From NCBI GenBank assembly GCA_964035545.1, contig OZ037768.1, forward strand, positions 17,219,875 through 17,283,874: a DNA stretch of 64,000 bases, given 5' to 3'. The stretch is from Bugula neritina. Taxonomy: Eukaryota; Animalia; Bryozoa. This document shows, one piece after another, positions 6,690-41,752 of the stretch. The translations under genes were made by a program, and so were the position numbers. The notes below the pieces were generated by a model. The model searched no databases. It saw only the letters and a list, made by a program, of their open reading frames with translations, and was not told the origin of the DNA. The first letter of the stretch is position 1, and the number at the start of each line of letters is the position of its first letter.

Positions 6690-8039
6690 CTTTAAACCTT
6701 GTGACTTGACCTGAAAAAGTGAAATAAAATTGTTGAAGAATGGTTTTAAAAGCTGCATATGCAAACTCAGTTGTGTGAAACTATGGTAATTTGCAAAAAT
6801 TACTTTGGTTTACTGATTATACTGGTAATGAGAATTAATTATCAATTTGCTTATTGAGAATTTGATCATGTCTCTCATGTCTGCACAGCCCTTTCAAAAT
6901 ACTATTTATTAATAAAAACACTGACGGAAAATATAATTATTAATAATAAAATCATTAAAGAAATTATATCATTATGCTCCCATGCAACCGAAAATCTATC
7001 TGTACGAGCATCCATCTGGATCCACTCAAACTATAGGATTGTAGTGATTATAATGTTTATTTTCAATATAAGTCTAACATAAAAGTTTACTAAGGTAAGA
7101 AGCACTAAGCAGGGCTTTTCAATTCCCGTGTGTAGTTTATTTTCTTTTGCAATATTTCAATTTATTTATTATATCACTTTTCTATGAATTGTTTTAAAAT
7201 AGATCTAATACAAAAGAATGAAGCCTGGCTTTTTGTTTTTCATCAAATTTATTCGCAGCAAGAAAACTCTTTGCTCATTAATTCTGCACGGAATCAATAA
7301 GTCACAACTACTGACCATATCTCTAACCCAATTAAGTATTTAATAGATTATATTAATAATATAGTATATTCATTAGTTTTTAGAAAAGTTACGTCAGCTT
7401 TAAGAATTATCTGCGTCTGCAGATTCATTTGATATGCGCTCTATTTCATATGCACTTCGTATCTATTGCTTCAAGAAAATTAAAGTAACAAATCAATCCA
7501 TAACAGAATTATAACAAAACATACCTGTAAAGCTGTATATCTGTAAATACAGAATTTTATAGGTTCTGTTAGAATTCTCGTATGGGTGGATATTAAGCAC
7601 AGATTCTGACTTGTAACATGACACTCCCTATGAAGTTGGTTAAGCTGACTGCTTTATAGAGGTTGTTGATATCTCCATCTATTAATAAATTGAGTGAAGT
7701 ATACTAACAATTGAAGTGCTATCAATTACCAATGAGTTTATAAGAGGTTTGCTGTCAGCTTTTTGTGAAACTGTGAACAGCTTTATTCAAGGCATTATAT
7801 GCTTCATTTTGTAAATAGGAAATATATGCTAAAAATATTTGAAAATATAAGCAATTTGTGGTTTCAGTTACAATATTATTGATCACATTGGTAACATATG
7901 ACAACTAATATTACATAAGTATGAAATTTTCTGCAGGTTTTGAATTAGCTCGATTTATTCAAATTTAAAACATCAACAGTTTTGTCAATACTGGAATACA
8001 CTTCATAAAATAGTAACATGTGTATAATGCATGTAATAG

Positions 8040-8255
8040 GGAGTAGCCGTGGTCTAGGGGTTAGAGCATTTGCTAAGTAAGCACGAAGTCATGGGTTCTT
8101 GCCGCGGCAAAGGCCATTGGTGATGTTAGAAAGAGCATCCAGTCATAATTACTCTTGTGTCTCATTTAAATAAGTCCTTAGCCCGATTTAACAAAAACCC
8201 TTTGCATCAGAGGTTTTATCACTAGGATGGTGACTATAAACTTGCTTGAGTTTTT
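8040..8255 (+). mobile_element. tRNA-derived SINE (about 210 bp), copy 1
   Basis: A-box-like TAGCCGTGGTCTAGGGGTTAGAGC, B-box-like GGTTC, conserved core GGTGATGTTAGRAAGAGCATCCAGTCATAA and T-rich end. Six related copies occur in the window. Confidence 0.8.
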
Positions 8256-8895
8256 ATAATGCATGTAGTGCTTAGCTACACGGTAACTAAACCCAAGTAT
8301 GAATAAGAAATTTATCTACTTTAACTAAAGTGAAATAGATTTTTATGTATTGGTGAATGATTACATAGTTCAACAAGCAGTAATGTTACAATGCGAAGTA
8401 CATACACTACATTTCCATGCTTTTCATCACCATTTCTCATTCAGTGTTTAGAAACAGTTGCATGAAATATAGCCACAACCATATGTTCATCCATACAAGC
8501 ATTCATTCCCATAATGCTAAGTTATGAAAAACTAATGATATTGTATATTTGTATGTGGTTCTTAACCATACATTATATAGACTTATTGTATTTAAAATTT
8601 GCTTCAACATGCAATAAGTTTACAATGTGGTTATATAGTAGGCTGACAAAAAGTGAATATTATTTGAAATAACATACTAGGAGAGAAACAGGATAAAAAA
8701 GAAAATTCAGAATCACAGACTTTTTAATATATCAAACACTGAAGAAGAGGAAAAGCTATAGCTTAACATAAGAACTTTATAATATTATCTAGCTTAAACG
8801 TCTAAGCTTGCATATCAAAAGTTTATTTTTCCTGTAGTTGTTGAAAGTATTCAATTTTTCTATACAACTTATAAATTTATAAAAGGCATCTCTCC

Positions 8896-14800: not shown

Positions 14801-16003
14801 ATGTGACTACCAATGTTTCAGCCAACCCACAATTTATTTTTTTTTTAATTATAATTTCTGTTTATATAAAGTAATTAGGTTAGAGCTGTTTTCCTTGAGA
14901 ACAAAATTGAAGTGCTGTCTAGAATAAAGTTATACCCTATCAAAAGAAAATATTAAAAGTTAAAGTACCTGAAATATCTTGAAAATCTTCAAGACCTGCA
15001 ACGACTGGAATATCATCAATACTCTATGTATTTCTTTGTCATAGTGCTCATCAAAGTCGTACGAATTTGATATCGATGTCAGTGCAAACGAGCTAACAGC
15101 ACAGAGCCCTGAAAATATGTCCATCCAGTTAATAAATGATTTGAAATACATCAATCCTGGGCACAGAATCAAACGCAGTACTGTTTCAAAAACGAAAAAT
15201 GTCATGAAAACTCTCTTGGCTGTAATGATCCAAGGTTTTGGTGAGCTGTGGACGTAGCAATCAATTTTCTTCATTCCCGAGCAACCGATATTTTCTATGG
15301 CCTGCTCCATGTCACCAGTTAGGTTTCTGACAAAGCTTCTAGCTTCCTTCTCCGGGTTCGGTTGTCTGTAGTGCACACTGGTTCCTAGACCATGGATAAT
15401 CAAATACAGAAATACAGAAGCAATGGTGATCACAGCATACATGACTGACAGTCTTCTAAACTTTGTATATGGACCAAGTGGGTCAGTTATAAAACACCAA
15501 CATGTATATCTCAGCTCTAAAAACTTGTTAGACCCTGGAGGAGGTGGTGGTGCTCGGTTTTCCAGCCACTGGAACTCGGCTTCCAAACGGGATTCTTCAT
15601 CATCTTGAATTCCATTGATACCATCACTCGGAATATTCCAGAAGTTTATTTCTTCCATCACCAGCTCTTTGTCATATCCAGATGGTACATTCAGCACATT
15701 ATATCTGAGAATATTCAGAACTGCATTGAATAATGCAGGATCTCTATCAAAATAGAATGCGTTGAGCTCTTCAATCCAATGATCTGCTAGTAAATGCGGA
15801 GAAGCAAACTTGCTGTGTGGGTAACTTTTTATCAGCTGATTAGAAACAATAAACTTTTCTCCTGATATGTTGAAATGAAAGAGTTGAAGTGAAACCTTGC
15901 TTTTCTCTTTAGTGTGTTTTACAGCCATCTTTTCATTTTCTACGCCCACTTTATTTTTGCTGATAGCAAAAACTGCCGTAGCTACAGCCGCAAAGTCAGC
16001 CAT
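8896..16003 (-). CDS. Voltage-gated K+ channel family subunit, Shaw/Kv3-like and divergent (paralog B)
   Basis: Coding exons 16003-14969, 13570-13396 and 9188-8896. Exon phases and the 175-bp middle exon match paralog A; filter [12 protein letters not shown]. The second coding intron carries the Gypsy insertion. Confidence 0.9.
9868..13212 (+). mobile_element. Ty3/Gypsy LTR retrotransposon (Mag-like), internally deleted and non-autonomous
   Basis: LTRs of 307 bp at 9868-10174 and 12906-13212 (TG...CA, no differences seen by eye). 5-bp TSD GGTGA at 9863-9867 and 13213-13217. PBS TGGTGTCAGAACTGGGAT at 10177-10194, a near-complement of the tRNA-Leu 3' end. PPT GAGGGAGGAG at 12896-12905. Confidence 0.97.
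10218..12731 (+). CDS. Gag-protease-reverse transcriptase polyprotein, truncated in RNase H
   Basis: 837-aa ORF with tandem Cys/His knuckles (CPQCYISHDRKQC, CKLCNKTGHISSVC), protease WDTGA, RT motifs WAAPIVVV, RICGDFK and YLDD, and the RNase H start ADASSYGLGVVL...VAYASKT. Homology then breaks off and there is no integrase core. Confidence 0.93.
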   Translation: MEEVIKQLVTIMQQQQQQQMEQFAQILGQFTTAVKPGEPAQNKSVTVPRFDSYDRDKESWTQYLQRLNQHFTVYNVSDSEQKRACLLSWIGSECYELLTKLYGSEDITTMSFDNLAGKLSTHFIETKHVQAARYQFYNCKMKPNQSYSDWAADLRGLARNCNFTCKKEDCGESYVDDQIRDIIIKETPHADVRRQCLLDPDPTLENVLKKAATYIQTAETDKVLKGETSTPVTTNQMSSTYKRQNKGSQGKRPQFHKSENQTAMPTQPSKLKSCPQCYISHDRKQCPHRNKQCKLCNKTGHISSVCKTSSKSSGNNSHFVEESSSSVYNIYERKGKQIWINTTVNNKQTQFQWDTGATCSMVGNKGYEALGSPPYQQTDTTLHSYGNTAMQVRGECYVTVTIGQTTKNNLRLLIVDSDEGVNLLGVDWSDSFGLSQQGLSAVDSDTEVTNAVHNVDTKVKVLTTKYPDVFKPGIGHCKTFKVPIYLKSEQKPCFSKPREIPYSQHEATRAELNRLEAEGVIQRINFSNWAAPIVVVTKPSGKVRICGDFKRLNQCISIDQHPLPKLDDLMNRLRGGKFFTKLDLADAYLQLELEDDAKQLCVINTPFGLYQYNRMCFGIAPGPAQFQRCMDTLTQKLPGVAAYLDDLIITGKTEEEHWTNLTNLLSTLQEHGFRIRLDKCEFFKHSVEYLGHTIDKDGKRPTAASMAALSQLPRPQDLHQLQAFLGKVNYYGRFISNLADKAAPLYKLLKNDTTFTWSNECEQAFTQLKNSIINATSLTHYDETKPLILAADASSYGLGVVLSQDTDQGEVPVAYASKTRKCYLHSTNRQWQLEEAC
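13905..14312. repeat. Hexamer microsatellite (GTGTAA/GTGTAG)n
   Basis: About 400 bp of GTGTAR units in an intron of Kv paralog B; it explains the HLHL, CRCK and VGVS ORFs. Confidence 0.97.
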
Positions 16004-18211
16004 ATTTCTTATATAGATACTACCTGCGAGTAAAGGATACAAATTATTTAACCTAGAAACAACACTGAAATGCCGTGAACATTTATTGATTGCATATAAA
16101 CACACATGAATTATTGAATAAATTCAACATATAAAGACAATCCTCATCATGATGGCTTATTATAATACATTTATTGTATTACGATTTGTAATAAATTCTT
16201 TTTAGATGAACTCGAATTTTTGTTTGCTACAGTATATAGACTAATGCCAGCTTGAATCTTTGTTTATTTTAAAAACTAATGACAGAAAAAAAATGTGATG
16301 AAATCTATTTGAAAACATAAAAGCCAAGCTGAGATGAAGTGCTTGTATTTAAATGTTTTACTTACTCAAACTTTCAGTTTCTAGAAGAGTAGACTCATGA
16401 ACTCGCTCTATCCTTATCCTTGCATCCTCTCAGAAGCTCATGCTGGCACACACTAAATTTATATACTATGCAGTGACCACATTTCACAATAAAATAATCC
16501 TGTATAATACTGGTTGATCAGACACTTATCCCATATTACAACTACTAAACACTGATTCTATTCAATAATGAAGAGAGCTAAAAAATCAACCTATTTGATT
16601 GCAGGTTTATCGACATGGCTCTTTCACTTTATTCAAATATTGATTTAAGATTTTCCATTTTCCTGGAAAAGTTCATTGCCATTACTGAATATATTATAAA
16701 TGTTAAATATTATTCCATCCCACATTTTACATAAAAGGTAATCTCCCTCTTGTGCCCATTTGAAATCCATTTCAAGCTTTATTTTCTATCATAATAAAAT
16801 ACTGTGTAGGCAAATATAACTGCATGGCTTTGATATTAACCATTGGATGGCCAACATGATATAGCATTAAACTAAACCACAATGAAGAAAATTAGGATGA
16901 GTTATGAAATTATGTTGCACCAAAATCACATGGGGCAGTTAATTAAGTTATATATTTACAATAATTTGTGCAATTGTTGTATATGTAGCTTGTGTCCGAA
17001 TCAATTGCTGTCATTATTTGCTTGCTTCGGGTTAATAAACACAAATGATTTCAAACACAAATTATTTCAAAAGTAATATGTAATAGCATGAATACATAGC
17101 TCTAATTGTCAACTCACTCTGCTCTTTGAATAGACATGTATACACGATTTCTGTTACTTCCTCAAGCAATGAAAACGACTGAATATGAATTGGTTTGATA
17201 TTTGAAACTGCATGTGGATATACAATGCCCATGTGCAACTAAGTGCTCTACACATTTTATTATCATAATTTATCAGTTATACATGTATAGCAGATGCCAG
17301 TGAAAGGAAATACAGCATATTATATGCAACAGATATTGGACTTTAGTGCCAAAACATCCTTATTACTGCTGCTGTAATATGTACTATAGACTATATCAAT
17401 AATGAAGCATGTAATTTTATTGCCTTTTCATTTCGCTTCATATGACTGACATCATGGCAGATGGATGCTGCCTTGCGGTGTGTTTTTTCACAATATGGAG
17501 TTGTTCCTCTTGGTACAGCTAATGCTTATACTCTTGTAGCTGTCATCCTTTCAACTGTGTGAGCATAATGTATATTGTGTTAGCAGGATTGATCATGGAA
17601 TGAAATGACAAAATATGATAACATTTGCATGTATGGAATTGAATAAAACAATGGCCAAAGCAATGGTCCACAATGATGATGTAAAACTTAAACATATTAA
17701 ATTCATTTACTGACTGCTAATTAAGTTTTAAAAATTTTCTTTAACACTTGGGGTGAAAAAATTGTTGCTGGTAATTAAATTGTTGTTACATATAATATTT
17801 TTGACTACTATTAGAGATCAAGCCCAGTCAACAAAAATTCATTTACTACTATTAGCATTATTATTTAATCATATAAACTAACCTGCCAGCTGCCCAATAC
17901 TTTAACTTTCACTAATACTCCTAGTCTGTTGTCTAGAAAGTTATTTAATCTACCAGGGTGAGGCTATGAAGACTCGCCAGAAGAGAGCATTTGTGAGACA
18001 CATGGACCAGAAACACTGGTTTGACAATACAATGAAGTCTAATAGCAGAGTTACAACTATAGCATAAGCTAGACAGGATGTGGTGAAAGAGGTGCCATCA
18101 GCCATTGTAATTCACCTACAACAATAGCGAAGTCTTTTAACACACTGTATATGCTGTCTGCCAACTCTCCCTTCCCGATGACCTCTGCAGGTTGAAATAG
18201 AAGCCTTGAAT

Positions 18212-18405
18212 AAAAAGCTCACGCAAGCTTATAGTCGCTATCCCGTCAGAAAGCCCCTTATGGAAGGGTTTTTTGTTAAAATCAGGCTAAGGATGAGGCA
18301 CAGGAGCAATTATGACTGAATGCTCTTCCTAACATCACCAATGGCCTTTGTCCGGACTCATGTTTACTAGGCAAGCGCTCTAACCCCTAGACTACGGCTA
18401 CTCTC
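18212..18405 (-). mobile_element. tRNA-derived SINE copy 3
   Basis: Reverse complement of the SINE core and head (...TGCTCTTCCTAACATCACCAATGGCC...CTAACCCCTAGACTACGGCTACTC). Confidence 0.8.
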
Positions 18406-18578
18406 TGAGTTAAATACTTTGAATGATCTAGATATAAGTAGCATAATTTATAGTTCCTATAGATGCTATAAAACTCGTTTTATTTGCAGAATATTTGTGC
18501 AATTAAGTTCAATGAGTAGACCGTTCTATATTTTTGGAGTGAATAGTTAAATAAAGGCAAAGTTCTACCCAAGACAGA

Positions 18579-18582
<4 letters not shown>

Positions 18583-18642
<60 letters not shown>
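18583..18642. repeat. (TA)n microsatellite
   Basis: About 30 TA units; the tract resumes at about 18957-18975 on the far side of the ribozyme-bearing insert. Confidence 0.95.
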
Positions 18643-18645
<3 letters not shown>

Positions 18646-18957
18646 CAATCTGTGGACAGCAGCTGTTTCGGGGTTTGTCCCCTCATCAGCACAGAACAGA
18701 GTACCATGGCCCACACCTTCGCAATAGTAGAAACTTATGTTTCTACTAAAGCATATTTAAAAGGTGTGTAAACTCAAGCCAGAGAGCTCAAGTGACTCTA
18801 GGGTCACCTAGGAGTCACGAGCCTTGCAAAATGCTAGCAGCTTGAGTTTGTGACCATGGTGAGAGAGCTCAATCACTGAATGTCATTGCTGAGCATTAAG
18901 TGAGAGCATAATACCTCAATCTGTGGACAGCAGCTGTTTCGGGGTTTGTCCCCTCAT
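18642..18957 (-). mobile_element. Retrozyme-like or Penelope-associated non-autonomous retroelement (271-nt period, about 1.17 monomers)
   Basis: A direct repeat of about 45 bp at 18642-18686 and 18913-18957 contains the hammerhead; the second copy is truncated. There are internal hairpins and (TA)n on both flanks. Confidence 0.7.
18649..18695 (-). ncRNA. Type I hammerhead ribozyme
   Basis: The minus strand reads TCTGTG-CTGATGA-GGGG-ACAAA-CCCC-GAAA-CAG-CTG-CTG-TC-CACAGA: stem I TCTGTG/CACAGA, core CUGAUGA, stem II GGGG/CCCC, GAAA, a minimal stem III and a GUC cleavage triplet. Confidence 0.9.
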
Positions 18958-19206
18958 ATATATATATATATATATGTTGGAGGAGTCATGGGCCTTGCAT
19001 TATAATGCAAATTGAATTCATGATATCTCTGAGCATAAATTATGTATGCATTATATTAAATATGTAAATGCATACATAAACTAGTTTTGGGAATTGGGAC
19101 ATAGAATGTATATCATTGATATTTTTCATATGCAGATATGTTTAAATTCCTTAATCATAAAATGATATAGAAAACTGAGCTTCAATTATTTATAGCCTAT
19201 TGTTTT

Positions 19207-19208
<2 letters not shown>

Positions 19209-19286
<78 letters not shown>
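19209..19286. repeat. (TA)n microsatellite
   Basis: About 39 TA units. Confidence 0.95.
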
Positions 19287-19292
<6 letters not shown>

Positions 19293-19630
19293 ATAAATAT
19301 ACGAGAAAAATTATTGATTCATTATTTTATTAGGCAAAGTAATTATACTGATATATATATATATATGTACAAATTTGTCATAAAACTCACCACATAAAAT
19401 TATAAAGATTATCCTGCTTTACATCATAACAAGTAAATCATTGTATTAATATGCAATAAAACATGTCAAAATATCAAATATGCTGCAATCACTAGCCGCT
19501 TTAACATGTTGTATACCCTTATTAAGTAGTACGCATTAAATGTAATGTAACAAGTGATGACAACCACGTAAACACACTACTATGAAAGTATATATAACAT
19601 TGATGACAAATGATAATAATTTTATTCTTT

Positions 19631-22600
19631 TCATTCTTGAGAGTTGAGTTTTGAAATATCTGAAGTTGTCGTTCCAGCAGAAGTGTTTTTCTGTTTGTGT
19701 TTCTTCTTCAAGGCAGCAAACAACAGCCTTCTTCTCTTCCTATTGTGCTCCCAGTAGACGTTAAAATGGCTGCCAATAATGGCCACTGGCAAAGCCGTAA
19801 GAATAATTCCAGAAATAGCGCACAAAACTCCGACAAAGTATCCACCAACTGTAGAAGGATAGAAGTCACCGTATCCAACTGTTGTCATGGTGATGATTGC
19901 CCACCAATATCCTAAAACCCAAAGAAATACTTGGCTATAAAGAATATCCGTTGTAAAGTCACAATGCAATGCTAGCCTACAGGCTTTATTTTGCATTTTT
20001 CATCATAAATTGACCAAAGAGCATAGAGATTTTGGTTCGCCGACTATTGGGTTCAAAAACTTCAGCTTATTAGCAACATGAAATGCCTATTACTGATGGA
20101 TGTATTTTTCTGCTTCTGCTCACTTGCCTTTGAAGAAACACCTATTTGTTACACACTGATGCAAAATAGACCAGTTTCGCAGTGATTTCAACAATTGCTT
20201 TAATTTCCCAACTGGTGATATAATATATCAGTTAATTAAAAGAATTTTTCTGAGTGCCAACAACAATAAAAATTCACACATCAATGAAGTCACAAGACAA
20301 ATGTTTAGTGTCCTAATATAATTTGCCTGACAATTACATCAAGTTTTATATCTTTCAGCACAGTGTGAGTAACTTTGCCTTGGCCCTAGACCAAGGCTGT
20401 CCAACAGCCGGGCCCCAGGGCCGGATGTGGCCCCCTGCCTACATTTATGTGGCTCTCAAAGACATAAAACTAAAATTATTTTTCACAGCATATACATGAA
20501 TTAGAGTGAAAAACCACCTGCCTGATTTATACACATGCTATAAAACATGCAGCCAGCATCAACTATTGGGACTTTATTCTGTAATGATTCATAAGAATTT
20601 GGAATAAAATAATTCATTAAATACTGTGGCTGTGGCCCCCAGCACAAACTAAAGTTTACAATGCGGCCTTCCCCACAAAAAATTCAGTGGCCCTCGATCT
20701 AAAAAGTTTGGACACTCCCGCCCTAAACAGTGTGGTTTTAGTCAACAAGTGTAAAGGCCTTAGTATTGGTCAGCCTACCCACACTGGCTAGTTTATTAAC
20801 GTATAATGATAGTATAATGATGACTACAATGCCGAGGTTGTATGGTCACTTACTGGGTTACCTTTATAGTTTATAGCATTACCAGCCAGTGACTTATTTA
20901 ATCAATAATTTTCTTTCCTTTTATTTTCTAAAGTTCACAGTCAACACTCACCATCCAAGCTTAAAATTCATTGCTTTTACAAAATATAATTGGCCTATGT
21001 AAAGAATAATAAGCAATTGCTTTGTAGATAGTTTTATGTTATTAGAAGTTGTAACTGCAAATTGTTAGAAAAAGAGGAATACAAAATCATTGATACAAAA
21101 AGCTTTGAGGTGAGGTGGATTAATGAAGAGGTTAGGAAAAGCCTGTGTTCTAAATCAAAAATGCAACAAATAAAGTTATGTTCTTTCAAAGATTATTCAA
21201 GCTATATCTCAAGCCTAATTCATAATGAAAATTAAAAAACTTAATCTATTGAAATTTCTTTCTTACTGAACCTAAATATTTCTACCACAAAGATACTTGT
21301 ACAGCAAAATACCAAAAATAGATTCAGCCCCTAATTAAATGTTTACACATTTATACTAACTGTAGTGCCAGTTCTCTGTAACATGAAAAATTGATATCTG
21401 AACATATTGTTGTCCAATTTTGTTGTTGTCACATAAAGAGTTCAATAGAATTGCCTCCTCCACCTATAGGCCTTAAGGTGGTAAACTTCAAAGCAAAGAA
21501 TCTTAAGAATTTTGAAAAATAGATAAAGGATGTTTTATGCCGATCTTCAGTATTTCTTGATATATTACACAGTATCCTCCATATAGACATGCAAGTGCTT
21601 TTGCAGTCACTGTCCACTTTTAATTTAATAGGGGCTGCTAGAATGGTATGATAAATCATATCTGTTGACTATATTGGTCATAGTAAAATATGATTGGTAT
21701 GAGCTTTGCTAATAAATTTTAACAAAGCTTTCTTGTGTCAAGCAGGTATAATTTATTTATGATAAATTTGCATGCTTGTCAAAGGTTTTCACATGCATTT
21801 TTAGACACACCTAAAAGTTAATGCAGTTTTTGATGTTGCATTAGGCAACCTAACATAGATTTTATTAGACTGTCTATGAAAATCTTAGCAAGTAAACGCA
21901 ACTATTAATTCCTTAGCTTTTAAAAATTAATCCCTGACCAGAAGTACCACACATGGTCATAAAATATGAGCAATTTCTCCAGCAGATATGCTGAAAGAAG
22001 TGAAGATATTTGATCATATGGTTGACTGACTTTGATCAACACTATAAACCTTGTTGGAGAATAAGTGTGATAGTAATGGCATCAGCCTGCATGGAAGAGC
22101 ACAAGAGGAATGATGAGATCAGAGGCATGGCAGGAGTAAAAGCAGTAACTGTATCGATGAGGAAGAGTTAGCCTAGGGCCACACAGTGCGTATTTTCGCA
22201 TGCGAAAATTGAAATCACAAGTAGCAAAGGTGTCCACTGTAGCGTCAGTGACGCGTGATAAATAAAGCATTCATTTTAAAAAATCGCACTCGCTTTCAAT
22301 AAAACGCAATTACTGGAATATAGCACTAAAATAAAGAAATTGGGCTCGCTGAATAACTACCAGCCAATTAGGTGACGATGACCGAGACGATTCGCACTTG
22401 CGTTGAAAATGCAGAGCGACAAGTGCGAATGTTTTCTCAATGCGCACAGTGGATACCTTTGCTACTTGTGATTTCAATTTTCGCATGCGAAAATACGCAC
22501 CGTGTGGCCCTAGGCTAAGCTGAAATGGTATGGGCATGTATGCAGGTGAGACAAAGAGGAGGGCATAAAGAGAATCAGCAACATCAGTGTGGAAGGCAAG

Positions 22601-24292
22601 AGAGACAAATAGGTGAATGAATACCATAAGATGGGGATATGAGAGCGTGGAGCTTGCATAGCAAGGACACATGTAATAGAATTAGATAGAAACCATTAAT
22701 TGAGTTGGTTATGCAGAACAGTACTTAAATAGGTCGGATGAGAATAAGTGTGGTATGACTAGACTGTAAGTCTATGCAAAAGAATTTTAAGTATCTGATG
22801 CTGTGGTTCCCAGACTACCATACAGCATGAAGGCAGCGCTAGTTGATGGTTTAAGGCAGCACTCACCATAAACACAATCAGGCACTCCAACACCCATTTC
22901 TGATTGCAGCTCTAGGAACGAAACGGATGTAGCAAATATAAACATTGCTATCATTAGATACATAACCAGAAGGAAAAGTTCTTTCAAACAGGCTTTGAGT
23001 GTAAGCATCATCACCATGAGCCCATCTATCAGACTTGCGTACTGTAATGAAGAGAATTTGATGCTATAATTAATATATAGCTTTATTACTAATACAAGGT
23101 ATAACATCACAGCCCTATATATATTAATTACTTACTTTTGGCACTGCAAATGAAGTCAATATAAGATTATAGATTCAATGATATTATTTATCGACTATGT
23201 TTAATTTATTTGTTCAGAAAATAAGAAATTCTAAACAATTATAGAATTTGACTTTACCTGAAAAATTTTGAAAATCCTCAAAATCTGAATGGACTGCAGA
23301 CAGATAACAATGTAATGCAAATGCATTTCAGCTTCTCCCACAATCTCTTTGGTAACCACAACAATTTCGATGGCAAAAGCTGCCAACGCACCTATTCCAG
23401 CTAGAATGTCAATCCAAGTTATTATAGACCTAAAATACGCCAAGCCTGGACATAGGATCAATCGAATTAATGTTTCCAGGATAAAAACAAATTTTAAAGC
23501 GTATTTGGAGTAGGTTATCCAAAGTAAAGGTGTTGTTCGAATGTAGCATGATATTTTTGACATTTGAGAACAACCTAGATTGTCTATAGCAGAGTCTAGG
23601 TTGGTGGTCTCCGCAGTCTTGTTAGTGTAAAGAGCAGGTAAAGCGTGCTCATCAATAACTCTGTAATGTGGGCTGGTGCCTATGCCATAAAGTATCATGT
23701 ATAAAACCACTGCGACAATCGAAAACACGGCATATGCGATAGACATTCGCCGATATTTTGTATATGGACCAAGTGGGTCAGTTATAAAACACCAACATTT
23801 ATATCTCAGCTCTAAAAACTTGCTAGACCCTGGAGGAGGTGGTGGTATTCGGTTTTCCAGCCACTGGAACTCGGCTTCCAAACGTAACTCTTCATCATCC
23901 TGAACTCCTTCGACATCTTCTTTTGGAACATTCCAGAAGTTAATTTCTTCCATCACCAGCTCTTTGTCATATCCAGATGGTACATTCAACACATTGTATC
24001 TGAGAATATTCAGGACTGCATTGAATAATGCAGGGTCTCTATCAAAATAGAATGCATTGAGCTCTTCAATCCAATGATCTGCTAGTAAATGTGGAGAAGC
24101 AAACTTGCTGTGTGGGTAACTTTTTACCAGCTGATTAGAAACAATAAACTTCTGACCCGAAATGTTAATATGGAGAAAATGTAAATCTTTGACAGCATTA
24201 TCTTCCACCTTATTTGTCGTCATCTTTTTCAGATCTTCATTTGATAAGCTCATATTAATCACAGCACTAGCAACTGCAGCAACGTCACTCAT
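19631..24292 (-). CDS. Voltage-gated K+ channel family subunit, Shaw/Kv3-like and divergent (paralog C)
   Basis: Coding exons 24292-23258, 23041-22867 (175 bp) and 19911-19631; structure matches A and B; filter [12 protein letters not shown]. Confidence 0.9.
20392..20720. mobile_element. hAT-type MITE
   Basis: Imperfect TIRs CAAGGCTGTCCAAC...TTTGGACACTCCCG, subterminal GGCCC motifs and an 8-bp TSD CCCTAGAC/CCCTAAAC (20384-20391, 20721-20728). Confidence 0.75.
21106..21290 (+). repeat. Unclassified interspersed repeat of about 170 bp, copy 1 of 4
   Basis: GAGGT...GAAAAGCCTGTGTTCTA...AAGTTATGTTC...CTAAAT; related copies at about 35925-36092, 38215-38382 and 56379-56540. Confidence 0.7.
22085..22680 (+). 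mobile_element. Decayed 3' end of an RTE-clade non-LTR retrotransposon, interrupted by a MITE
   Basis: Removing the MITE gives [31 protein letters not shown]...VEGKR, which resembles the RTE C-terminal RNxxIR...LxWxGHVxR...GKR signature; it contains an in-frame stop. Confidence 0.65.
22171..22515. mobile_element. MITE with TIRs of about 70 bp, probably PIF/Harbinger
   Basis: GCCTAGGGCCACACAGTGCGTATTTTCGCATGCGAAAATTGAAATCACAAGTAGCAAAGG... with its near-perfect inverse ending at 22515; flanks are TTA and TAA. Confidence 0.85.
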
Positions 24293-26452
24293 ATTGAATG
24301 CTTTATGGGCTTGAATCCAGAGTAATGCTGTTATGAAAAAGAAAAATGTTTAATAAGAACAAATAATGATGCAAGACTGACAATTTTCATTCAACATAAT
24401 AAAATACATTTTAAGTAAATGAATTTTATTTACAAATTCTTACCTGAGAGCTTGAGAAAGGTAGAGGATGACCCTAACGCTTGATTTGTGGTTGTAAAAC
24501 TGCCTAAATAGTTAACAAGCTGCTGCCTACTTGAACAAAACAAGTCAATTGTCAAGAGCTGCCAAATCTCTGCACGAGAGGTGTTAAGAAATTAGTTCTC
24601 CAGCTGTGCCTTCTCAGTGTTACTTGCGGAGTGAATAATAGTTTGTAAGTAGCTAATTATTGAGTCTAAGTTCTTAGTGCTGCTTCTAGCTGAGGCTACA
24701 AACTAGGTGATTAGCATAGCCCTGCCCGAACAGAAATGAATGAATTGTGGCACACATTACTTTTAAGTAGATCATCTACCCTGGCTTATCCTTTCACACT
24801 ACAGTAATTACAGCTCCACAATAATACGTAATTTTATCCTGTCGTAAAATACATAAATCTAATTTAATAAATTGCCAAGACTGAAGAATGTCACAAACCT
24901 ACATTTAGAGCATAGACTGGTACCATATAACTAGTAAAATGGGGATGATTAGTCTCTTAGAGGCTGTATTGCCATAAGGTTATTGCACCATAAAGTAGTG
25001 GTGAATTTTCTTTTACATAATATTCAAAAATTATTTATTCAAGAACATACTAGGCCCTATAACTAAAAGTATTTTTTATATTTTTCTAAAATATAGTAAT
25101 TATATATGCTTGTTTAAAATAAAAGGTTGAATAAATGTCTGATACAATTAAGGGATTGTTTTAAATAGACAGTAAATTTTTCAGTATAAGCTAGTAAATA
25201 GCATATAGGAAAACCACTGAATATAATAATATGTAGGCATCTTGAACTAAATACTACCATCATTCTCAAAAATGCTCACAATGTTGTAAAGATATAATGG
25301 CAGGTCTGTAGCCACTTGCCTTTAAACATTCAATTGCTTAGCAATATGATGCAAGCACCTACTATTTGTACCATCAGACCAGCCACAAAAACAAGGTCAA
25401 CCGAGTGATCTTAGTATTATATTATAACAAAGCAATAAGCCCACTGTCAATATGTCAATGTGAATATTTGTAAACATACATCTGTTTTGTGAACTAGAAG
25501 TATTTTTTGTTGTATTATATGAAATGACTTTGGTTGACAACAGTCACAGCACTTTATACTTAAATACCTTGCAGTTTTAGTTCTAAAAACTTACATTGAA
25601 ATTTGGACTTGCAATATCAGTAATAAACACATGTTTTTTCTGACTGCATAAAGAACTGGTGACAGCTTGGCACATTCTATAGAAAGTAATAGCAATAGTT
25701 GGTCTACACTCTACAATCTACATCATTAAATGTTGAAAATTACAACTTTACAAAAAAAATAATGAAGGAAGCTTGGTAGGTTAGCAAGTGCTTTGTTTTA
25801 TTTTAACTTGTTTTCAGCCCATCTCTTAAAGTTAACTGTAGGCTCCCAGAAGAAATATATTTAGTGAAAGCTGCCATCGAAATAAAAAAAGTAATTCAAA
25901 CATGGATAAAATAAAAGCACAGCACCAACAAAACAATGATCATCAACCCATACCCTCGTAAAAACACCAAAAAGATTGTATTAAGTATTTTTTTCCCAAA
26001 AGAATGTATATGTTAGACTAAGAAAAACATTCGTTTAAAAACCTCACCATACCAACTTCTGCAATATTAAGATAAAAATACAAGATTAATGCTAAGTTGT
26101 ACTTCTAACAATTGAGATTACTGATGAAATTTAAACAGAACAACATTTTTCTATCTGCAAGAAAATAACATTAATATTCTTTAAAAAGAAACAACCTTAT
26201 TTATGGCTGTAAGCATTGGAACATATTTCATTGAATGAAATGTTTAAATGTCACTGCTCTAACTGTGACAAGATAATGCATTTCCAACATGATCAGCAGC
26301 TATGATATGGCATACATATAAACACACACACAAACATATTTAGTTTACAGTTTCAGAGCTGTGAGAATTAGCAATATGGAGATTCAAGCACTCATGGAAG
26401 GGAGAGGGGAGTAAATAAGTAACACAAAAACAATCCATCATTAAGGATTGCA

Positions 26453-32400: not shown

Positions 32401-35400
32401 ATGAGACAAGATTTGGAGTTGTCTCTGCAACCCGAGCAGGACATGGATGAAAGTCTAGTCTTACCTCAGCAATCACTCCAATACATCCGGACACCGTAGC
32501 GGCTTTAGGCTGAGCTCCACTCATACCACCCAATCCAGAGCTAACAAACACCTTACCCTTTAGAGTATCAGAACCCAGGTATCTCCTGCCTGCATTCAAC
32601 ACTGTCAGCTACAAGCCAATCACAAGATGCAACATATTTTTATATTACATAATATTTTGGAACACAATTTTTACTCTCAAGTCAGGTTTATTGACCTAAT
32701 TTTGGATTAATAAAACTTAAGCATTTTGCAGTGCTAGGGGTTAGAACGCTGGCTTAGTAAACATGTTACCATGGGTTCGATCCCCAGTAAGAGCCATTGG
32801 TGATGTTAGGAAGAGCATCCAGTCATAAGTGCACCTCATAGAAAACAAGACTTTAGCCAGCTTAAAGAAGCTCTTTTCATTAATGGTCTTAACAGGGGTG
32901 GCGATTAAAAACCTACGCAACTAATTGTGAATGCTACGGTTTGACATGAGTTAGACAATATGCTGTGTCTTCAGGTGTTTTAGGGTGTGCATGTGTAATA
33001 TCATATTTAAACTTACAGTTGTGCCGTGGACAATCCCCTGAGGGCCGATGTAACAGTAACTCCCAGCAGTCATCTGCCCATACCTGCGTGCAAACAGCTA
33101 ATATGAGACTAGAAGATAATGTCACAAATGCTTATAGTTTTATATTTTGTCAAATTTACAAACAATAGTTTTACTGAGAAGATAACTCTTAAATATTGGG
33201 ACTAGGCTGAAAAGGAAAATTACTCCCATATAAACTAGAACAGGCTTTGCATGCTATGGATGTCCTGATGTTGACTCTCACAAGATAATGAGAATGTGTA
33301 TTTATTAAGGAATCTATTTCCTACAGGCACTATTTCTTAACATCAGCTGGTAGAGCACACTGCTTGAAACTGATTCATAAGAGAACATGAAGCTGTTTAC
33401 CCTGTGCCTCTCTCTGCTGCTAGTTGTCATGTATTCAGAGGCAGCAGTTACTTACAGCTGCCACCCCGACAGCGCTATGTAAGCATATTATTTGAACCTA
33501 ATTCTTTGACTACAATTTGAACTAAATTCTTTGACCAGAAGTAGCATTATAGTATACCTAGATTTCTTTTAGTTTAGTCAGAAATAAAATTTGTATTCAA
33601 TTGCTAAGCTGAGAAAGTTTCATGCCAAAAATTTCTCTACTCCTCTATAGAGGTTTAGATGTGAAAATCTGTTCCATATGCTGGATGAATAGATGCATAG
33701 GCAAGTTTCATAATACTTTCACACATACTGCATGTTATGTAGAAAATTTCAAATCTCAAAAGAAAAGAGCAAATCATGCTTTCATATTTCTGTAACGCTC
33801 AAAACTATTACCCTATAAAAGTTTACATCAGTTATGCAGTTTAATTAGATTATACTAAAATAATATCATGATAAACAAGTTTAAAGGTTTATCTAAATTG
33901 TAAACCATACTAAATTTTCAACTTCATTTCTATATGGCTCAATGAATTCTGCTAAACACTTATTTGTTTCAATAAATTTTTTATATGTTTCTGGTAATTC
34001 TATCAACAATAAAAACTTAAAATTCAATTGGATATTTTTAACCAACACTACTAAACATGGCAATACTTTTCTTAGGTATGATTAACTAAAATGTACATAT
34101 ACAATACTATTGCTAGGTACGATGAAGTAAGATGTAGGAAACTAGGATGTGATCCGAATGTACCCGGGTGTCCTTACAACCAAGCTTTAGTTAAGACGTC
34201 ATACAGTTGCCACCCAGATAGTGATAGGTCAAGTTATTTCATTACTTTTATACTGATGACATAATGTAAAGGAAGAAGACAACTCTAATTAACATTTTCT
34301 TGAAATTACACACAGCATAGCACAACTTTTTGCATATATTACAAAATCGTTGGAAAATTGAATAGTTTTATTCTTTAGTGTATCCAATCCAATTAAAACC
34401 AAAAGAAGTTTACTAAAGGAATTTGACAATATAATTTTATTCTCAATTTCTAATCAGCAGTATTTTACCCTATATAGTAGTTTTCTATCTCTAAAACATT
34501 CACTATGTGATTACAGGTACGACCCAGTGAAATGTGGATTCGGAAAATAGAGTGTTGCAGGAGAAAAGAAAAAGGCTGAAAATATACAGCAGCTCCAAGG
34601 AATAGCTCAACATAAACTTTATGCTCGATATAATGATGTTATAAATAAACTGTTTAATCAATTCTTGATTGTGGTTATAGTTTAGTGAACATATATTAAT
34701 AATATCCAACACTATTGGTTAGATGAAATATGACATCACAACATATAAAATCTGCAGGTCCAGAGTGATTTATTAACCAGAGCGGGTGTCCGCCATTTTG
34801 TGACTTATCACAGGAGCCATGGTTCATACTACTGTAATATGTTTACAGTGAATAGTTAATTGACGAATTGATCCAGTTTTACTAGTTTTTGCACCTTTGT
34901 TACGTGCACAAAAAATTGTGATGGGAACTATACAATAAATACATTATTTACTCACACAATTTATGTCTAATTATCAACAGAAACAGGCTTCAATTGCAAT
35001 ATAAATTTGGGTGTCTTTTTATTCTGCACATCTTATTACCACTTAACATGGGTGTAATTTATGAGCTTGATTCATATAGTATTTTTACACGTCTTAATTT
35101 TATGTAAAACTTTAAAAAAAAATTTTCACAAAAAAACTATTCGAAGAATTCAATGATAAAGTTATTGATTGTTCGTATGACTAAAAAGATATGAACTTAC
35201 ATGTTTTTTAAAATAATAATAATATTCCTAGGCCTTCAAATAAGTTTATAATAGTTAAATTGACTAACTTTTGGCTCTATATCATCAATCCATTAAGTTA
35301 GACACACATAACTATTAGTAATAATTAAATAATTTATTAAATTTTGCAGTTACCAAGTATAATCATGTAATAATTAATATATACATTTTTACAGTAATTA

Positions 35401-38400
35401 CATTACTAGTATTTTTGATTAATTTTTTGAAGAAATCACTTAATCATTTAATTTGTCAAATAATAATATGTTAGAGTTTAGTAAAAGTTAAATTTTAAAT
35501 AAAACCAAACGGTGATAGTAAATTCTTGAGTTCTATAAAAGGAAAATTACTCCCATATAAACTAAAACAGACTTTGCATGCTATGGATGTCCTGATGTTA
35601 ACTCTCACAAGATAATGAGGATGTGTATTTATTAAGGAATCTATTTCCTACAGACACTATTTCTTAACATCAGCTGGTAGAGCACACTGTTTGAAACTGA
35701 TTCATAAGAGAACATGAAGCTGTTTACCCTGTGCCTCTCTCTGCTGCTAGTTGTCATGTATTCAGAGGCAGCAGTTACTTACAGCTGTCATCCCGACAGC
35801 CGCATGTAAGCATATTTGAACCTAATTCTTTGACCAGAAATATTATTGTAGCATAGATTTCTTTAAGTTTAGTCAGAAATATTTTTTGCATTCAATAGTC
35901 TAGCCAAAAAAGGTATAGCAAGTGAGGTAGGTACAGTAATAGAGAAATTGAGAAAAGCCTGTGTTCTAGATTAGAAATGTAGCCAAAGAAGTTATGTTCT
36001 TGCAAGAATTTTAACCCTTGACCCAAAGTAAAATTCAATAAAAAAATTAAAGAACCTAGGCTATTTCCATTTCTCCACTACTGCTCCTAAATTGAGTGTA
36101 GTATAGCAAAAAATTTTGCATATTACAAAAATGGTTGGAAAATTGAGTATTTCTATTCTTTGGTTTATAACAATGGAGTATAATAATTGGCAGAAATTTC
36201 CACTATTTTAGGTTTGATCGAGTCAAGTGTGGATATGCAACACAGAGACCGACAGTGAAACCAGATTCCTCCTTTAGCTGTCACCCGGACAGCCGACTGT
36301 AAGTGTAGAAAACAGTGTAAGTGTAGAACTAGTGTAGGTGTATGGAATAGTGTAAGTGTAGAAATAATGTAGGTGTTTGAAAGCATGGAAGGTTAACCTA
36401 GGGGGAAGAATCTGTGAGAAATGCAGTATTAATCTTTCTGCAACTATAGCCTTGAATGTAGCGTACATGTGTATACCACACTTACTTAATATACCATACA
36501 GCGTATTTACACCTATACTTAAAGTACATTGCCTTATTTCTATTATCAATTTTTCACAGACAATTTACATATAGGTCTACAGCTATTATAGGTGAAGTAC
36601 AAAAATAGCAATTGTGACTCATCCAACTATTGTCACCAAAACATCAGGTCAAATAAATCAAACTTGTGGCAATTTTAGATACAATCCAACTAAATGTGGA
36701 ATTCCTACTTCAAAACCAGCAGCTGGCAAGCCAGACAATTCTTATAGTTGTCATCCTGATAGTCGAAAGTGAGTTCAACTATTACATAATATGTTACATA
36801 ATATTATATAACATAATATATTACATAATATATCATATGATGATCAGTTGGTATAGAGTATAGAGTATAGACTATTACATTAGTTGAGAGACCACTACAA
36901 ACAAATTGCTAAGTTTTAGTCCACCAACACTGCTACTTCCAGTTTTACTACTACCACTAGTCACTAGTGCATGTCTAGTGAGGCTTCTCTTTCTCTATAG
37001 TTGACTAGTTGAAGACCACATTTTCCCATGAGCAGGGCGGCAGGTTATATCTAGACGTACTCTTACTTTGGGCTTTTTTCTAAAACTTTCATCAGACTGC
37101 TTGAAGTGTTGTTACAGTAACAATTCATGTATATCACTGCTCTGAAAAATGCTATTTTATGTACTCAAAATCACTGAGGTGACAAGTATTTCCCTGCTAT
37201 ATCTACTACCTCTACAAAACATAGTCTGCACAGTATAGTTCTCCAGTTTGAAGTTGGGTTTTATTGAAACACCCAACTTCAAACTCGAGAACAGCGAACT
37301 ACTGCACTCAATCACCCCCAACTTGGAGCTGCTATTATACCAAGTTACCACATATAACTCATGCAAATCATAGCTAACATATGCTGAAAAAATAAAAAGA
37401 GAAGACGAATCACATATTCTAGGGATTACAATAAAAGTAAACTGATTATTTTGTCTCTTTAGCTACAACCCAGCGAAATGCGGGATTCCTACTTCAAGGC
37501 CAGCAGCCTCTAAGCCAGACTACTCTTACAGCTGTCACCCCGACAGTCCTAAGTGAGTGAAACACATTGTCTGCTATTAGAACAATCGCTTTTTGGAGGA
37601 GAGAAAAAAGTCTCGATGACATACTTAAATTTTAAAAGATAGAAAGTTAATTTTTTACAACTACATTTGCAAACAACAGAAGTTTAACAACATAATTGGA
37701 GTTTAGCAATATAATTTTATTCTCTATTTTCAATCAGTAGTATTCTACGTGGTACATGGTCTATAAATTAAAGTAGTTTTCTATCTCCAAAACATTCACT
37801 ATGTGATTACAGGTACAACCCAGTGAAATGTGGATTCGGAAAATAGAGTGTTGCAGGAGAAAAGAAAAAGGCTGAAAATATACAGCAGCTCCAAGGAATA
37901 ACTCAACATAAACTTTATGCTCGATATAATGATGTTATAAATAAACTGTTTAATTAATTCTTGATTGTGGTTATAATTTAGTGAACATATATAACTGATA
38001 TCCTACACTATTGGTTAGACATCAGGAAACATCCCAATCTGTAGGTCTACCATTATAGAAATCATCAATTGATGACAATTATATTTGCTGAGACTAACCT
38101 ACACGCAGGCTTAAATAAAAAACATGTATAAAGCAAGACTTTACATATAGAATGGCTACACCTGAGTGCTACACTCAATAGAAGTTGTTGTTAATATTGC
38201 GTTAGGTTTCCACGAGGTAGGTGCAGTAATAGAGAAATTGAGGAAAGCCTGTGTTCTAGATTATAAATGTATCCAAAGAAGTTATGTTCCCTCAAGAATT
38301 TCAACCTGCGCCCAAACCAAAATTTAATAATAAAATTATAGAACTTAGGCTATCTCAATTTCTTCACTACTACTTCTAAATGGTTTCTACAAGTAGGCAC

Positions 38401-41400
38401 TGAAAACAATTTGTTGCAAATTTGAAAGTTAATGAAAGGTATTTTTTGTGCTTCCTCCATTTTTGCAACATTTTTGAAAATTCTTTACAACTCACTGCAA
38501 CATAACTTTTTAACAAATTGTCAAAGGATAGAAAGCAGAAAAGAATAATAATGGTCTATTTAAATACTGAAGAAAACACCTAATATATATTCCCCAATTA
38601 GTTAGGGGAGTAAGAAGTAGTATGCCTAAGCATAGTCAGTAGCTCAAGCAGCAAAACTTGGGGAAGTAATTATTTTCTACTGAGCTAGAACAAGATATGC
38701 TGATTCAATGCACACTTATTGTAATTAGACAGGAGATATACAATGAGCTTCCATGGTGCCCCTACGATGAATTTGTGGTTGTGGTTTACACGAACCTATG
38801 GCAGTGGTTTCATTTGATGCAACTGTTTCCAAAATTTCAATGAAAAATCCATTTGGAAAAGTAGCAATAAGCTAGAATCTGGTGAACTTACATAGTGACA
38901 CCGAGAGCAAAGAACCTCTCGTAATCCTGGCGAGATGAATAGTTTGGAATCATCATACCGTTAGTTATGACGACTCTAGGAGCTGATGGTTGACTCGGGA
39001 ACAAACCACTGGGGTGGCCGGAGTACATGACCAGAGTCTGATTCTCAGTCATCTCACTCAGGTAGTTCATTACTAGCCAGAACTATAAACACCATTACAA
39101 GCTGGTGAAATACTAGATATCTTGAATGTGAACTATGCTATAAACTGTAACAATCAATGCTCTGACAGAAAAAAACAGCAGAAGGAGTTTTAAACATTAA
39201 ATTACCAAGCATTTTAAGGCAGACTAATACTCTTCTTTCCTGTTTAAAGTAGATATGGGAGTGAAGGACTCACTACATCACAATGCTATGCCAATAGTAA
39301 AATATCTGTTTATCATAATTGAAGCAACTTACATAAAAAATACAAAATATTCAACTCAATTAAAGACAAGACTACAAGACTTTATATAAAATAGTTCTAC
39401 CCGCATAAAATTCTAGTAAGGTATAAAAAATAGTATAGGGCTCTAAATAGTTGTACATTGGAAACTGTAGCATGCTAATCTTTTAAAGACAACCACAGCT
39501 CTTTAGTGACTACCAGTAAAGATGCTTATTTGTTGTGAGTAGTTAGAGATACTGTTCATACCTGAGCCCAGTTGCCCAGGACCTGCCCATTGCCACCGTA
39601 TGTTACCAACTCGTGAGGGAACTGGGCTACTTTGTGGTCCAAGTTATTCATGATCATCAGCATTATAGCTGCAGCCTGTGTACACTTGGCAGGGTAAAGG
39701 TGTATAGGGTAAGCCCTGGGCACAAGATACAACTGATGACAAAGTAGCAATAATCATGCATATGATAAATTTGTAATTATATGAGTTTTTGGAATACAAG
39801 ACAAGCATGGTTTTTAGGATTTTAGCTTAAAACGGCGCAGGTAATAATGGCACAATTGGAAAAGTAGGCAAAAATGGCACACTGATGGTAAATTTGGCCA
39901 AACCTTTACACTCAAACCTAAGCCCCCAACCTCCACCTCAAACCCAATATAAAAAATGTGCCATTTTTACCAGACACCTGCTTTTAGTGATGCCATTAGC
40001 CAAAATATCATGATATTTTGATGATTGCGATTATTTGAAAGTAAATTATACAACTTTCGGAAAAAAATATGAGTCAACTCACTTCATCTGAATATGTGAG
40101 GGTAAAAACCGATACATATAAATGTGGCCATATAGCTTCAGCTCCTGAGCAAACTCAGCCGCCAGTTCTTTGTGGACATCCTTTGGGAAGTATCGCAAGG
40201 CATTTTTCACAGCTAGCTAAAATGAATTATCAACAAATAACTTCAATTATACAACAATTCTGTTTGAGTATACTGCTGAAAAACAATACTTGAACAAAAG
40301 GCAATAATTATCAATTGTCTTTGGGTAAATCTTTGGAATTGTTATATAAGTGATCAACTACAATAAAAACTTGCATATTAACATGGAGTGAATTTTGGTT
40401 ACATAAGTTACATGTGCCCAAACCACACATTGCATACAAATCTTCTTCCAGGAAACATAACCAGAATGAAGCACAATGACTTATATTTATACGAAGCAAT
40501 GAATTAAAACAGCTTTATCACTATAAATCACACATTACTGCAAAAATTGATATTGTTGAATAAAATACAAACAATTTGATTGAGTAGTACTATTAGTAAA
40601 TGGAAATGAAAACAGAAAATGTGAGGTTAGGAGAGGAGTTTCACCGATACAGATCTTGAATAGCAGACAACTAGTAACCGATCACCAAGGAGTAGCTAAT
40701 GCAAGGTTATATTATACTTACTAACTGCAGGACTATATTATACTTACTAACTGCAGGACTATATTATACTTACTAACTGCAGGGTTATATTACACGTACT
40801 AACTGCAGGGTTATATTATACTTACTAACTGCAGGGCTATATTACACTTACTAACTGCAGGGTTATATTATACTTACTAACTACAGGGCTATATTATACT
40901 TACTAACTGCAGGGCTATATTATACTTACTAACTGCAGAGTTATATTATACTTACTAACTGCAGGGCTATATTATACTTACTAACTGCAGGGTTATATTA
41001 TACTTACTAACTACAGGGCTATATTATACTTACTAACTGCAGGGCTATATTATACTTACTAACTGCAGAGTTATATTATACTTACTAACTGCAGGGCTAT
41101 ATTATACTTACTAACTGCAGGGCTATATTATACTTACTAACTGCAGGGTTATATTATACTTACTAACTGCAGGGTTATATTATACTTACTAACTGCAGGG
41201 CTATATTATACTTACTAACTGCAGGGTTATATTGTACTTACTAACTGCAGGGCTATATTATACTTACTAACTGCAGGGTTATATTATACTTACTAACTGC
41301 AGGGCTATATTATACTTACTAACTGCAGGGCTATATTAGACTTACTAACTGCAGAGTTATATTAGACTTACTAACTGCAGGGCTATATTATACTTACTAA

Positions 41401-41752
41401 CTGCAGGGTTATATTATACTTACCAACTGCAGGACTATATTATACTTACTAACTGCATGGTTATATTATACTTACTAACTGCAGGGCTATATTATACTTA
41501 CTAACTGCAGGGCTATATTATACTTACTAACTGCAGGGTTATATTATACTTACTAACTGCAGGGTTATATTATACTTACTAACTGCAGGGCTATATTATA
41601 CTTACTTTGCAGTCTTGCTCAGAGAGAACTGGTGTACGGACTGGTGCATGGGGGAGACTTTCATCTCTCTTCTCAACTTTTGGCGGCAAAGGACTGAGAG
41701 GAATACCACTGCATAGTCTTACAAGTTGAGCTTTAATATCCCCTTCAGACAT
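26453..41752 (-). CDS. UROC1: Urocanate hydratase (urocanase), eukaryotic type, 15 coding exons
   Basis: Exons 41752-41606, 40216-40083, 39715-39562, 39082-38892, 33083-33017, 32608-32465, 31922-31790, 31300-31105, 30237-30140, 29973-29779, 29443-29373, 28702-28604, 27924-27825, 27454-27273 and 26602-26453 are all phase-compatible. Motifs PHAPVRTP, FPHELVTYGGNGQ, YGQMTAGSYCYIGPQGIVHGT, GLGGMSGAQPKA, SDQTSCHNP, FFDYGNAFL, GFGPFRWVC, RDHHDVSGTDSPFRETSN and HNGGGCGWGEVINGGFG. Confidence 0.98.
29150..29366. repeat. 16-bp tandem minisatellite (CAGTRRTGTTGCTATR)
   Basis: About 13 imperfect copies start a few bases inside the intron that follows the UROC1 exon ending at 29373. Confidence 0.85.
30785..30988 (-). 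mobile_element. tRNA-derived SINE copy 4
   Basis: TATGACTGAATGCTCTTCCTAACATCACCA...CCCCTAGACCATGGCT. Confidence 0.75.
32735..32920 (+). mobile_element. tRNA-derived SINE copy 5
   Basis: CTAGGGGTTAGAAC...GGGTTCGATCCC...GGTGATGTTAGGAAGAGCATCCAGTCATAA. Confidence 0.75.
33387..34550 (+). CDS. Small secreted Cys-loop peptide precursor 1 (78 aa), nested antisense in UROC1 intron 4
   Basis: Exons 33387-33478, 34117-34227 and 34517-34550 (phase-2 GT-AG introns) give MKLFTLCLSLLLVVMYSEA-AVTYSCHPDSAMYDEVRCRKLGCDPNVPGCPYNQALVKTSYSCHPDSDRYDPVKCGFGK*. It has a signal peptide, two SCHPDS loops and a terminal GK; AATAAA lies near 34644. Confidence 0.85.
35714..37846 (+). CDS. Small secreted Cys-loop peptide precursor 2 (130 aa), nested antisense in UROC1 intron 4
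   Basis: Exons 35714-35805, 36212-36298, 36679-36768, 37463-37552 and 37813-37846 give MKLFTLCLSLLLVVMYSEA-AVTYSCHPDSRMFDRVKC-GYATQRPTVKPDSS-FSCHPDSRLYNPTKC-GIPTSKPAAGKPDNS-YSCHPDSRNYNPAKC-GIPTSRPAASKPDYS-YSCHPDSPKYNPVKC-GFGK*. Codons of the motif vary synonymously between repeats. Confidence 0.88.
39818..39980 (-). mobile_element. Short copy of a Helentron/DINE-1-like non-autonomous element
   Basis: Reverse-complement match to 60494-60809, with AAAAATGGCAC/GTGCCATTTTT inverted motifs around an AAACC-rich tract. Confidence 0.55.
40703..41605. repeat. 26-bp tandem minisatellite (AGGGYTATATTATACTTACTAACTGC), about 34-35 copies
   Basis: A homogeneous array that begins exactly at the donor site of the first UROC1 coding exon. 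Confidence 0.97.

Follow-up and report, generated by a model that had tools for sequence, protein, structure and literature searches.

Several described gene families build secreted proteins from chains of small cysteine modules. Progranulin genes (PMC4527844) encode a signal peptide followed by a chain of cysteine modules split by introns. Their internal CN exons each begin with the second half of one module, continue through a short joining stretch and end inside the next module, of which they supply the first half; module number changes by exon duplication. The two bryozoan genes described here, which we call A and B, share all of these traits. A granulin is, however, a 12-cysteine, about 6 kDa stack of hairpins released by proteolysis (same source), whereas the A/B module has 2 cysteines in 13 residues. 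Single exons of our genes gave no granulin match in Pfam, the 12-cysteine granulin motif was not found in them, and the likeness is one of gene design only, not of membership. Nasonin-2 and nasonin-6 of Nasonia (PMC2853521) are likewise small secreted proteins that were built by exon duplication, contain 4-5 cysteine-rich repeats and lack processing signals, but they place a whole defensin-like domain on each exon in phase 1, whereas A/B exons straddle modules in phase 2; no sequence likeness was found between nasonins and the loop proteins. The spider knottins Hi1a/Hc1a and DkTx also string short cysteine modules on linkers, gain and lose modules, and serve as a model for avidity (PMC13172734), yet the Hc1a duplication is intron-less and within one exon, and knottins differ from A/B in having three disulfides and a venom role. 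Nothing indicates that A/B are toxins. More generally, symmetric exons are the subject of a published account which reports that such exons in succession are commonly homologous duplicates and that phase 2 is the rarest intron phase in human genes, at 21% (PMC3632108).

The window, that is the whole 64-kb stretch of Bugula neritina DNA analysed here, contains six copies of a SCHPDS motif, all on the + strand and between positions 33456 and 37547. These copies belong to two tandem genes (a count that covers the 64-kb window only), A (33387-34550) and B (35714-37846), with gene B starting ~1.2 kb past the stop of gene A. Both are open from ATG to stop in the spliced frame, gene A with three exons and 78 aa, gene B with five exons and 130 aa. 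In gene A, exon 1 (33387..33478, +) holds the ATG, a predicted signal peptide and the first half of module 1; exon 2 (A2; 34117..34227, +; 111 nt, phase 2-2) completes module 1, continues with a 24-residue linker that contains two additional cysteines, and supplies the first half of module 2; and exon 3 (A3; 34517..34550, +) holds the second half of module 2 and a GFGK-stop end. Gene B follows the same plan, with exon 1 (35714..35805, +; same content as exon 1 of gene A), three internal exons in phase 2-2, namely B2 (36212..36298, +; 87 nt), B3 (36679..36768, +; 90 nt) and B4 (37463..37552, +; 90 nt), and a last exon, B5 (37813..37846, +), with the second half of module 4 and again GFGK-stop. 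The GFGK C-terminus of both products is a possible amidation signal, and AATAAA follows at 34644 for gene A and at 37940 for gene B. The signal peptide prediction rests on hydropathy: the product of gene B exon 1 has a hydrophobic core (window-9 hydropathy up to 3.2), and the prediction extends to gene A through the 95% identity of its exon 1 to that of gene B.

All six introns of the two genes are GT-AG and phase 2 and begin five bases past the last SCHPDS codon, so that the single intron position proposed in an earlier note on this DNA, inside the second codon after SCHPDS, holds throughout, as do the internal exon sizes (111, 87, 90 and 90 nt) and their 2-2 symmetry. The junction residue, which that note gave as M, L, N, K or R, reads M and R in gene A and M, L, N and K in gene B. 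The interval it named for the whole cassette, 35714..37846, is correct for gene B but leaves out gene A with the 111-nt exon, 1.2-2.3 kb upstream. A degenerate pattern of motif plus junction matched six times in the window and never in 100 shuffles, even with 2 mismatches. The internal exons are homologous to one another, sharing 51-69 identical nt between exon pairs with equal flanking phase 2-2, B4 and B3 being identical at 69 of 90 nt. Copying of one exon-intron unit is sufficient to account for the common intron position and phase, and no further purpose is needed. As a separate observation, a homologue of window 34082-34261 (P0001) carries an in-frame 26-codon tandem duplication spanning the A2 acceptor and the first A2 codons; it would represent another haplotype or population with a second possible acceptor, or could be an assembly artefact.

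Over the 14 loops that can be read across the junction, the module has the 13-residue consensus C-H-P-D-S-x-x-[YF]-[DN]-x-x-[KR]-C, with 11 residues between the cysteines in all 14, counted across the intron. Positions 1-5, which are supplied by the donor exon, are invariant in 13 of the 14 loops; since the homologue search pattern required SCHPDS, this apparent conservation of the donor half is inflated. Within the window, the constancy of SCHPDS is free of search selection beyond the motif picked out in the earlier note, and the six copies there differ by synonymous codons at every position without a single residue change. Variability is greatest at positions 6, 7 and 11 and peaks at the junction codon (2.7 bits); positions 6-7 are often basic in the window, whereas in homologues N, D, S and I predominate at position 7. 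Exons end in AA or AG in 13 of 19 copies, a splice-signal bias that favours K, R and N at the junction. Linkers within exons span 3-24 residues; most have a length of 15-17, of which 6-9 are Pro/Ser/Thr and a few are Lys/Arg. Exon 1 encodes a first half-module only and the last exon a second half-module only, and these end halves, together with the constant spacing across the intron, suggest that the loop disulfide likely pairs across the intron. Pairing of cysteines within exons was considered and rejected: the distance between those cysteines ranges from 3 to 24 residues, and the first and last cysteines of the chain would have no partner. Dibasic sites are absent from gene B and limited to one RK in gene A, with none conserved between species, and the net charge is +8 for B and 0 for A. 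The two extra cysteines of the A2 linker (34136-34175) lie six residues apart and may form a small second loop that is absent from the other exons.

Two public sequencing runs cover the stretch, X1 (probable RNA) and X2. The source of the X1 contigs is a related population or species whose non-coding DNA diverges from the window by ~8%. All of the X1 joints listed at 95% likeness were considered (n = 8), and evidence was drawn only from regions with contig cover. Five of the six expected neighbour joints are present (33478-34117, 35805-36212, 36298-36679, 36768-37463 and 37552-37813), and in each case the intron removed is GT..AG, which indicates that X1 contains spliced molecules; exon 1 of gene A is thereby joined to A2, and in gene B exon 1 is joined to B2, B4 to B5, and each internal exon has joints on both sides. 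The remaining listed joints comprise two within an intronic repeat and one replaced stretch in the B2-B3 intron. The sixth neighbour joint, A2-A3, is absent from the list. A2 is nevertheless covered by a spliced contig, and another contig carries 28 unplaced letters ahead of exon A3, as many as would be predicted from a branch point that it shares with an unspliced contig (34200-34449). From this contig geometry we infer that A2 is spliced to A3, and the X1 list can thus miss real joints. None of the eight X1 joints skips an exon or links A to B, in contig-level data from which assembly drops rare forms, and one 210-nt contig spans B3, B4 and 30 nt of B5. Contig depth is 13-28 for unspliced branches versus 207-295 for spliced ones, and the survival of the former beside the latter indicates that assembly kept some minor forms. 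In X2, two contig classes of similar depth occur over 33000-38300, one equal to the window and the other ~7-9% different (e.g. 33499-33777), a pattern that suggests very high heterozygosity.

Genes A and B agree at 95-97% of positions in their upstream regions, first exons, last exons and 3' regions. A2, by contrast, shares only about half of its positions with any B exon. The gene A upstream region (33210..33386, +), with a TATA-like element at ~33229, matches its duplicate ahead of gene B (35537..35713, +) at 171 of 177 nt. A block in gene A intron 2 (34314..34388, +) is homologous to one that immediately precedes the B2 acceptor within intron 1 of gene B (36100..36174, +; 80% identity, E 1e-11); it occurs at only these two places in the window and would mark a reciprocal exon loss. 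Across introns, the 5' end of B intron 1 resembles A intron 1 (score 114 vs a shuffled maximum of 63), the 3' end of B intron 1 resembles A intron 2 (93 vs 52), and the 3' end of A intron 2 resembles B intron 4 (154 vs 63), with the other 12 of the 15 intron pairs scoring within the shuffled range. Between the intron-A1-like and intron-A2-like parts of B intron 1 sits a high-copy short repeat, MITE-like and without assigned strand (35923..36092), which has four more copies in the window and very high contig depth. This pattern of intron homology points to tandem duplication of a five-module gene followed by reciprocal exon loss. The ancestor would have consisted of a signal exon, A2, B2, B3, B4 and a last exon; after duplication, copy A would have lost B2-B4 and copy B would have lost A2. 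The module count of this putative ancestor, five, equals that of a gene model from a second animal (below). Under reciprocal loss, the A2-A3 and B1-B2 loops are likely hybrids made in DNA, although some of the identity between the gene ends could also stem from gene conversion there. The chimeric loops that the earlier note anticipated were thus likely made through DNA-level exon loss, as suggested by the intron homology; the splicing route that it proposed is unsupported. The locus is a compact case of tandem duplication with likely reciprocal exon loss and hybrid modules as a by-product, housed in a conserved host intron.

That host intron (33084..38891, -; 5.8 kb) belongs to a urocanate hydratase (urocanase) gene, identified by Pfam urocanase matches on the neighbouring exons, and the flanking exons are in frame across the junction. 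Genes A and B are nested whole and antisense within it. A motif-pattern scan of metagenome contigs gave 14 loci, of which five are true relatives with split exons (L003, L006, L009, L012 and L014). The other nine were dropped as single pattern matches without exon context, L007 and L013 resembling CxxCH heme motifs; the same kind of pattern scan of viral contigs gave no match. Three of the relatives (L006, L009 and L012) cover the 5' part of a related gene, from its signal exon to the second or third exon. L014 contains two further internal exons and the last exon, and it overlaps L006 at 91% identity. In L009 and L014, urocanase exons are 77-86% identical to those of the window and the intron ends are the same, which identifies them as orthologues of this locus from a different animal, probably also a bryozoan. 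A model combining L006 and L014, stitched from two contigs of different assemblies, is open over 150 aa with five modules and 10 cysteines spaced 11,15,11,15,11,15,11,16,11; the gene of this second animal, as seen in L014, ends without a Gly-basic/GFGK signal. Apparently from a third animal, L003 covers part of a loop gene with four internal exons, one of them with a three-residue linker, and neither a urocanase exon nor the last exon of the loop gene was found in it. One more such exon, from a further source, is present in P0016. The intron lies at one codon and phase in all relatives. Module number amounts to two in A, four in B, five in the combined model and at least four internal exons in L003, and so differs between paralogues and animals, in agreement with the suggestion of the earlier note that exon duplication sets valency. 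The 5' gene versions in L006, L009 and L012 are 87-93% identical mutually, with changes in the exon 2 linker, and may be alleles, paralogues or cryptic species. Directly after its loop gene, L003 also carries a separate small secreted Kunitz gene (2123-2530; Pfam E 2.8e-14).

Beyond these loci, a bacterial hypothetical protein (P0032) resembles the loop family in having 18 modules in uninterrupted tandem, each with the 11-residue spacing of cysteines and a comparable consensus (C-D-P-x-S/N-x-N-Y-D/N-x-x-x-C), but it differs from A/B in its four-residue spacers, its acidic character and its fusion to a C-terminal domain. For this likeness (E 1.4e-5 summed over 8 stretches), convergence would be as likely as descent, and the like spacing and consensus suggest a general small structural motif. 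P0032 is one of a set of bacterial hypothetical proteins (P0032-P0037; 507-575 aa) with a variable number of 17-residue two-cysteine tandem repeats and no family match. For the loop family itself, Pfam returned no family for any of five window exons searched singly, NCBIfam none for seven of eight queries, and PDB sequence searches nothing for A2, A3 or P0032. In the ESM Atlas, exon B3 and the P0032 repeats gave no usable feature match, with structure rows at TM 0.40 or lower. Several candidates were rejected, among them a weak YqfQ match in Pfam (E 0.28, in 1 of 12 aligned exons), a weak GreA match of P0032 in NCBIfam, proteins P0017-P0019 with only a short motif in common, and a likeness to the chitin-binding CBM14 hairpin, from which both cysteine spacing and aromatic position differ. 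Protein searches yielded no named or full-length spliced relative, P0001 and P0016 being exon fragments read as open frames. We know of almost no characterised secreted peptides from bryozoans, and a literature search for CHPDS gave no peptide paper by title among the matches listed. Searches on bryozoan secreted peptides, defence, adhesives, orphan genes, splicing and reciprocal exon loss produced no description among the listings, subscription journals being outside their scope. This bryozoan micro-domain family is apparently undescribed.

The family is real, expressed and spliced. It occurs in at least three lineages, in which it is conserved, it is missing from the family libraries searched, and its gene architecture is of a known kind. 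As to what it encodes, we think it probable that A and B are predicted-secreted, likely uncleaved multivalent binders with two and four disulfide-loop modules, respectively, in which module number changes by genomic duplication and loss of phase-2 exons and not by regulated splicing. The predicted signal peptide, the lack of conserved dibasic sites, the flexible Pro/Ser/Thr linkers, the tolerance of any module number and the charge all point to an uncleaved secreted binder. Behind the predicted signal peptide, 13-residue two-cysteine modules would likely close into loops on Pro/Ser/Thr-rich tethers, and such a chain might act as an avidity binder at the body surface, in mucus or in the cuticle, in contact with microbes or matrix. 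Secretion, disulfide pairing and the surface role are what we infer from sequence features. A peptide precursor cut to single cyclic 13-17-mers, acting as hormones, neuropeptides or defence peptides with the last one amidated, would share the signal peptide and the repeated short disulfide-type module and would give a use to the C-terminal GFGK of both window genes and to the single Lys or Arg in every long linker. We consider it unlikely, because dibasic sites flanking the repeats are missing from gene B and none is conserved between species, the second species lacks the Gly-basic end and one L003 linker is just three residues long; moreover, neither 'HPDS' nor 'KCW' is present in the body text of a Bugula neritina neuropeptide survey (PMC4990251). 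More doubtful still is a string of protease inhibitors in which each loop would present a variable P1, often Arg or Lys, at positions 6-7, as canonical inhibitors do. The variability and frequent basic character of these positions in the window would suit such a role, as would the Kunitz gene that directly follows in L003, but the residues found at position 7 of homologues are mostly not basic, the splice-signal bias of exon ends biases the junction codon to K, R and N anyway, and no match to inhibitor families (Kunitz, Kazal, pacifastin or Bowman-Birk type) was obtained in Pfam, NCBIfam or PDB with half-module queries, which lower sensitivity.

The remaining question is whether the split loop generates diversity in splicing, as do the Dscam-type and micro-exon genes that diversify proteins through alternative splicing. 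The earlier note had reasoned that exon skipping and joins from gene A into gene B would stay in frame and create new loops, and this is borne out at the level of the reading frame: each of the 21 downstream donor-acceptor combinations preserves the frame, and no two of them yield the same junction peptide. A set of hybrid loops made by skipping and A-to-B splicing in living colonies would also agree with the junction codon being the most variable loop position, with the weak A2 donor (GTCAAG) and with the short distance between the genes. Such a splice-level generator is nonetheless improbable, and this part of the earlier proposal is unsupported: the joints listed for X1 show a plain chain of neighbouring exons only, in contigs that drop rare forms, including the contig that runs from B3 through B4 into B5, each gene has its own near-identical upstream region, its own stop and its own AATAAA, and phase symmetry follows from exon copying alone. 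In addition, the donor half of the loop is nearly fixed, positions 1-5 being the same in all but one loop (in a set whose search selected for them), so that a donor swap alters one or two residues and shuffling adds little. Unlike in Dscam-type and micro-exon genes, the exons of the loop genes are nearly identical at the very donor-side positions that an exchange would recombine. A broader proposal, to which we give only a slight chance, is that the intron at the variable tip of the loop lets exon gain, loss or skipping write hybrid binding loops, such that colonies would differ in repertoire through DNA changes and low-level A/B splicing and would recognise symbionts, microbes or neighbouring colonies, making this a new bryozoan family of multivalent recognition proteins. 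The locus would be of far greater importance if the loops were a variable recognition system, which the present data do not show. A module of 13 residues with one disulfide is cheap to synthesise, and its fold and activity are thus directly testable.

Elsewhere in the window, three tandem paralogues of Shaw-like voltage-gated potassium channels lie on the - strand at 4400-24350. They are ~53-65% identical to a common reference, except for the copy at 23231-24349, and one of them is 94% identical over 287 residues to Bugula neritina EB796_014738, which points to a Bugula-like cheilostome bryozoan as the source of the DNA. Among these channel genes sits an LTR retrotransposon (9852-13195, +) whose terminal repeats match each other and whose 844-aa gag-pol frame apparently lacks integrase, as read from its translation. 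A 26-nt minisatellite (40696-41606) with 35 copies and a 93% match is located upstream of the urocanase exons seen.
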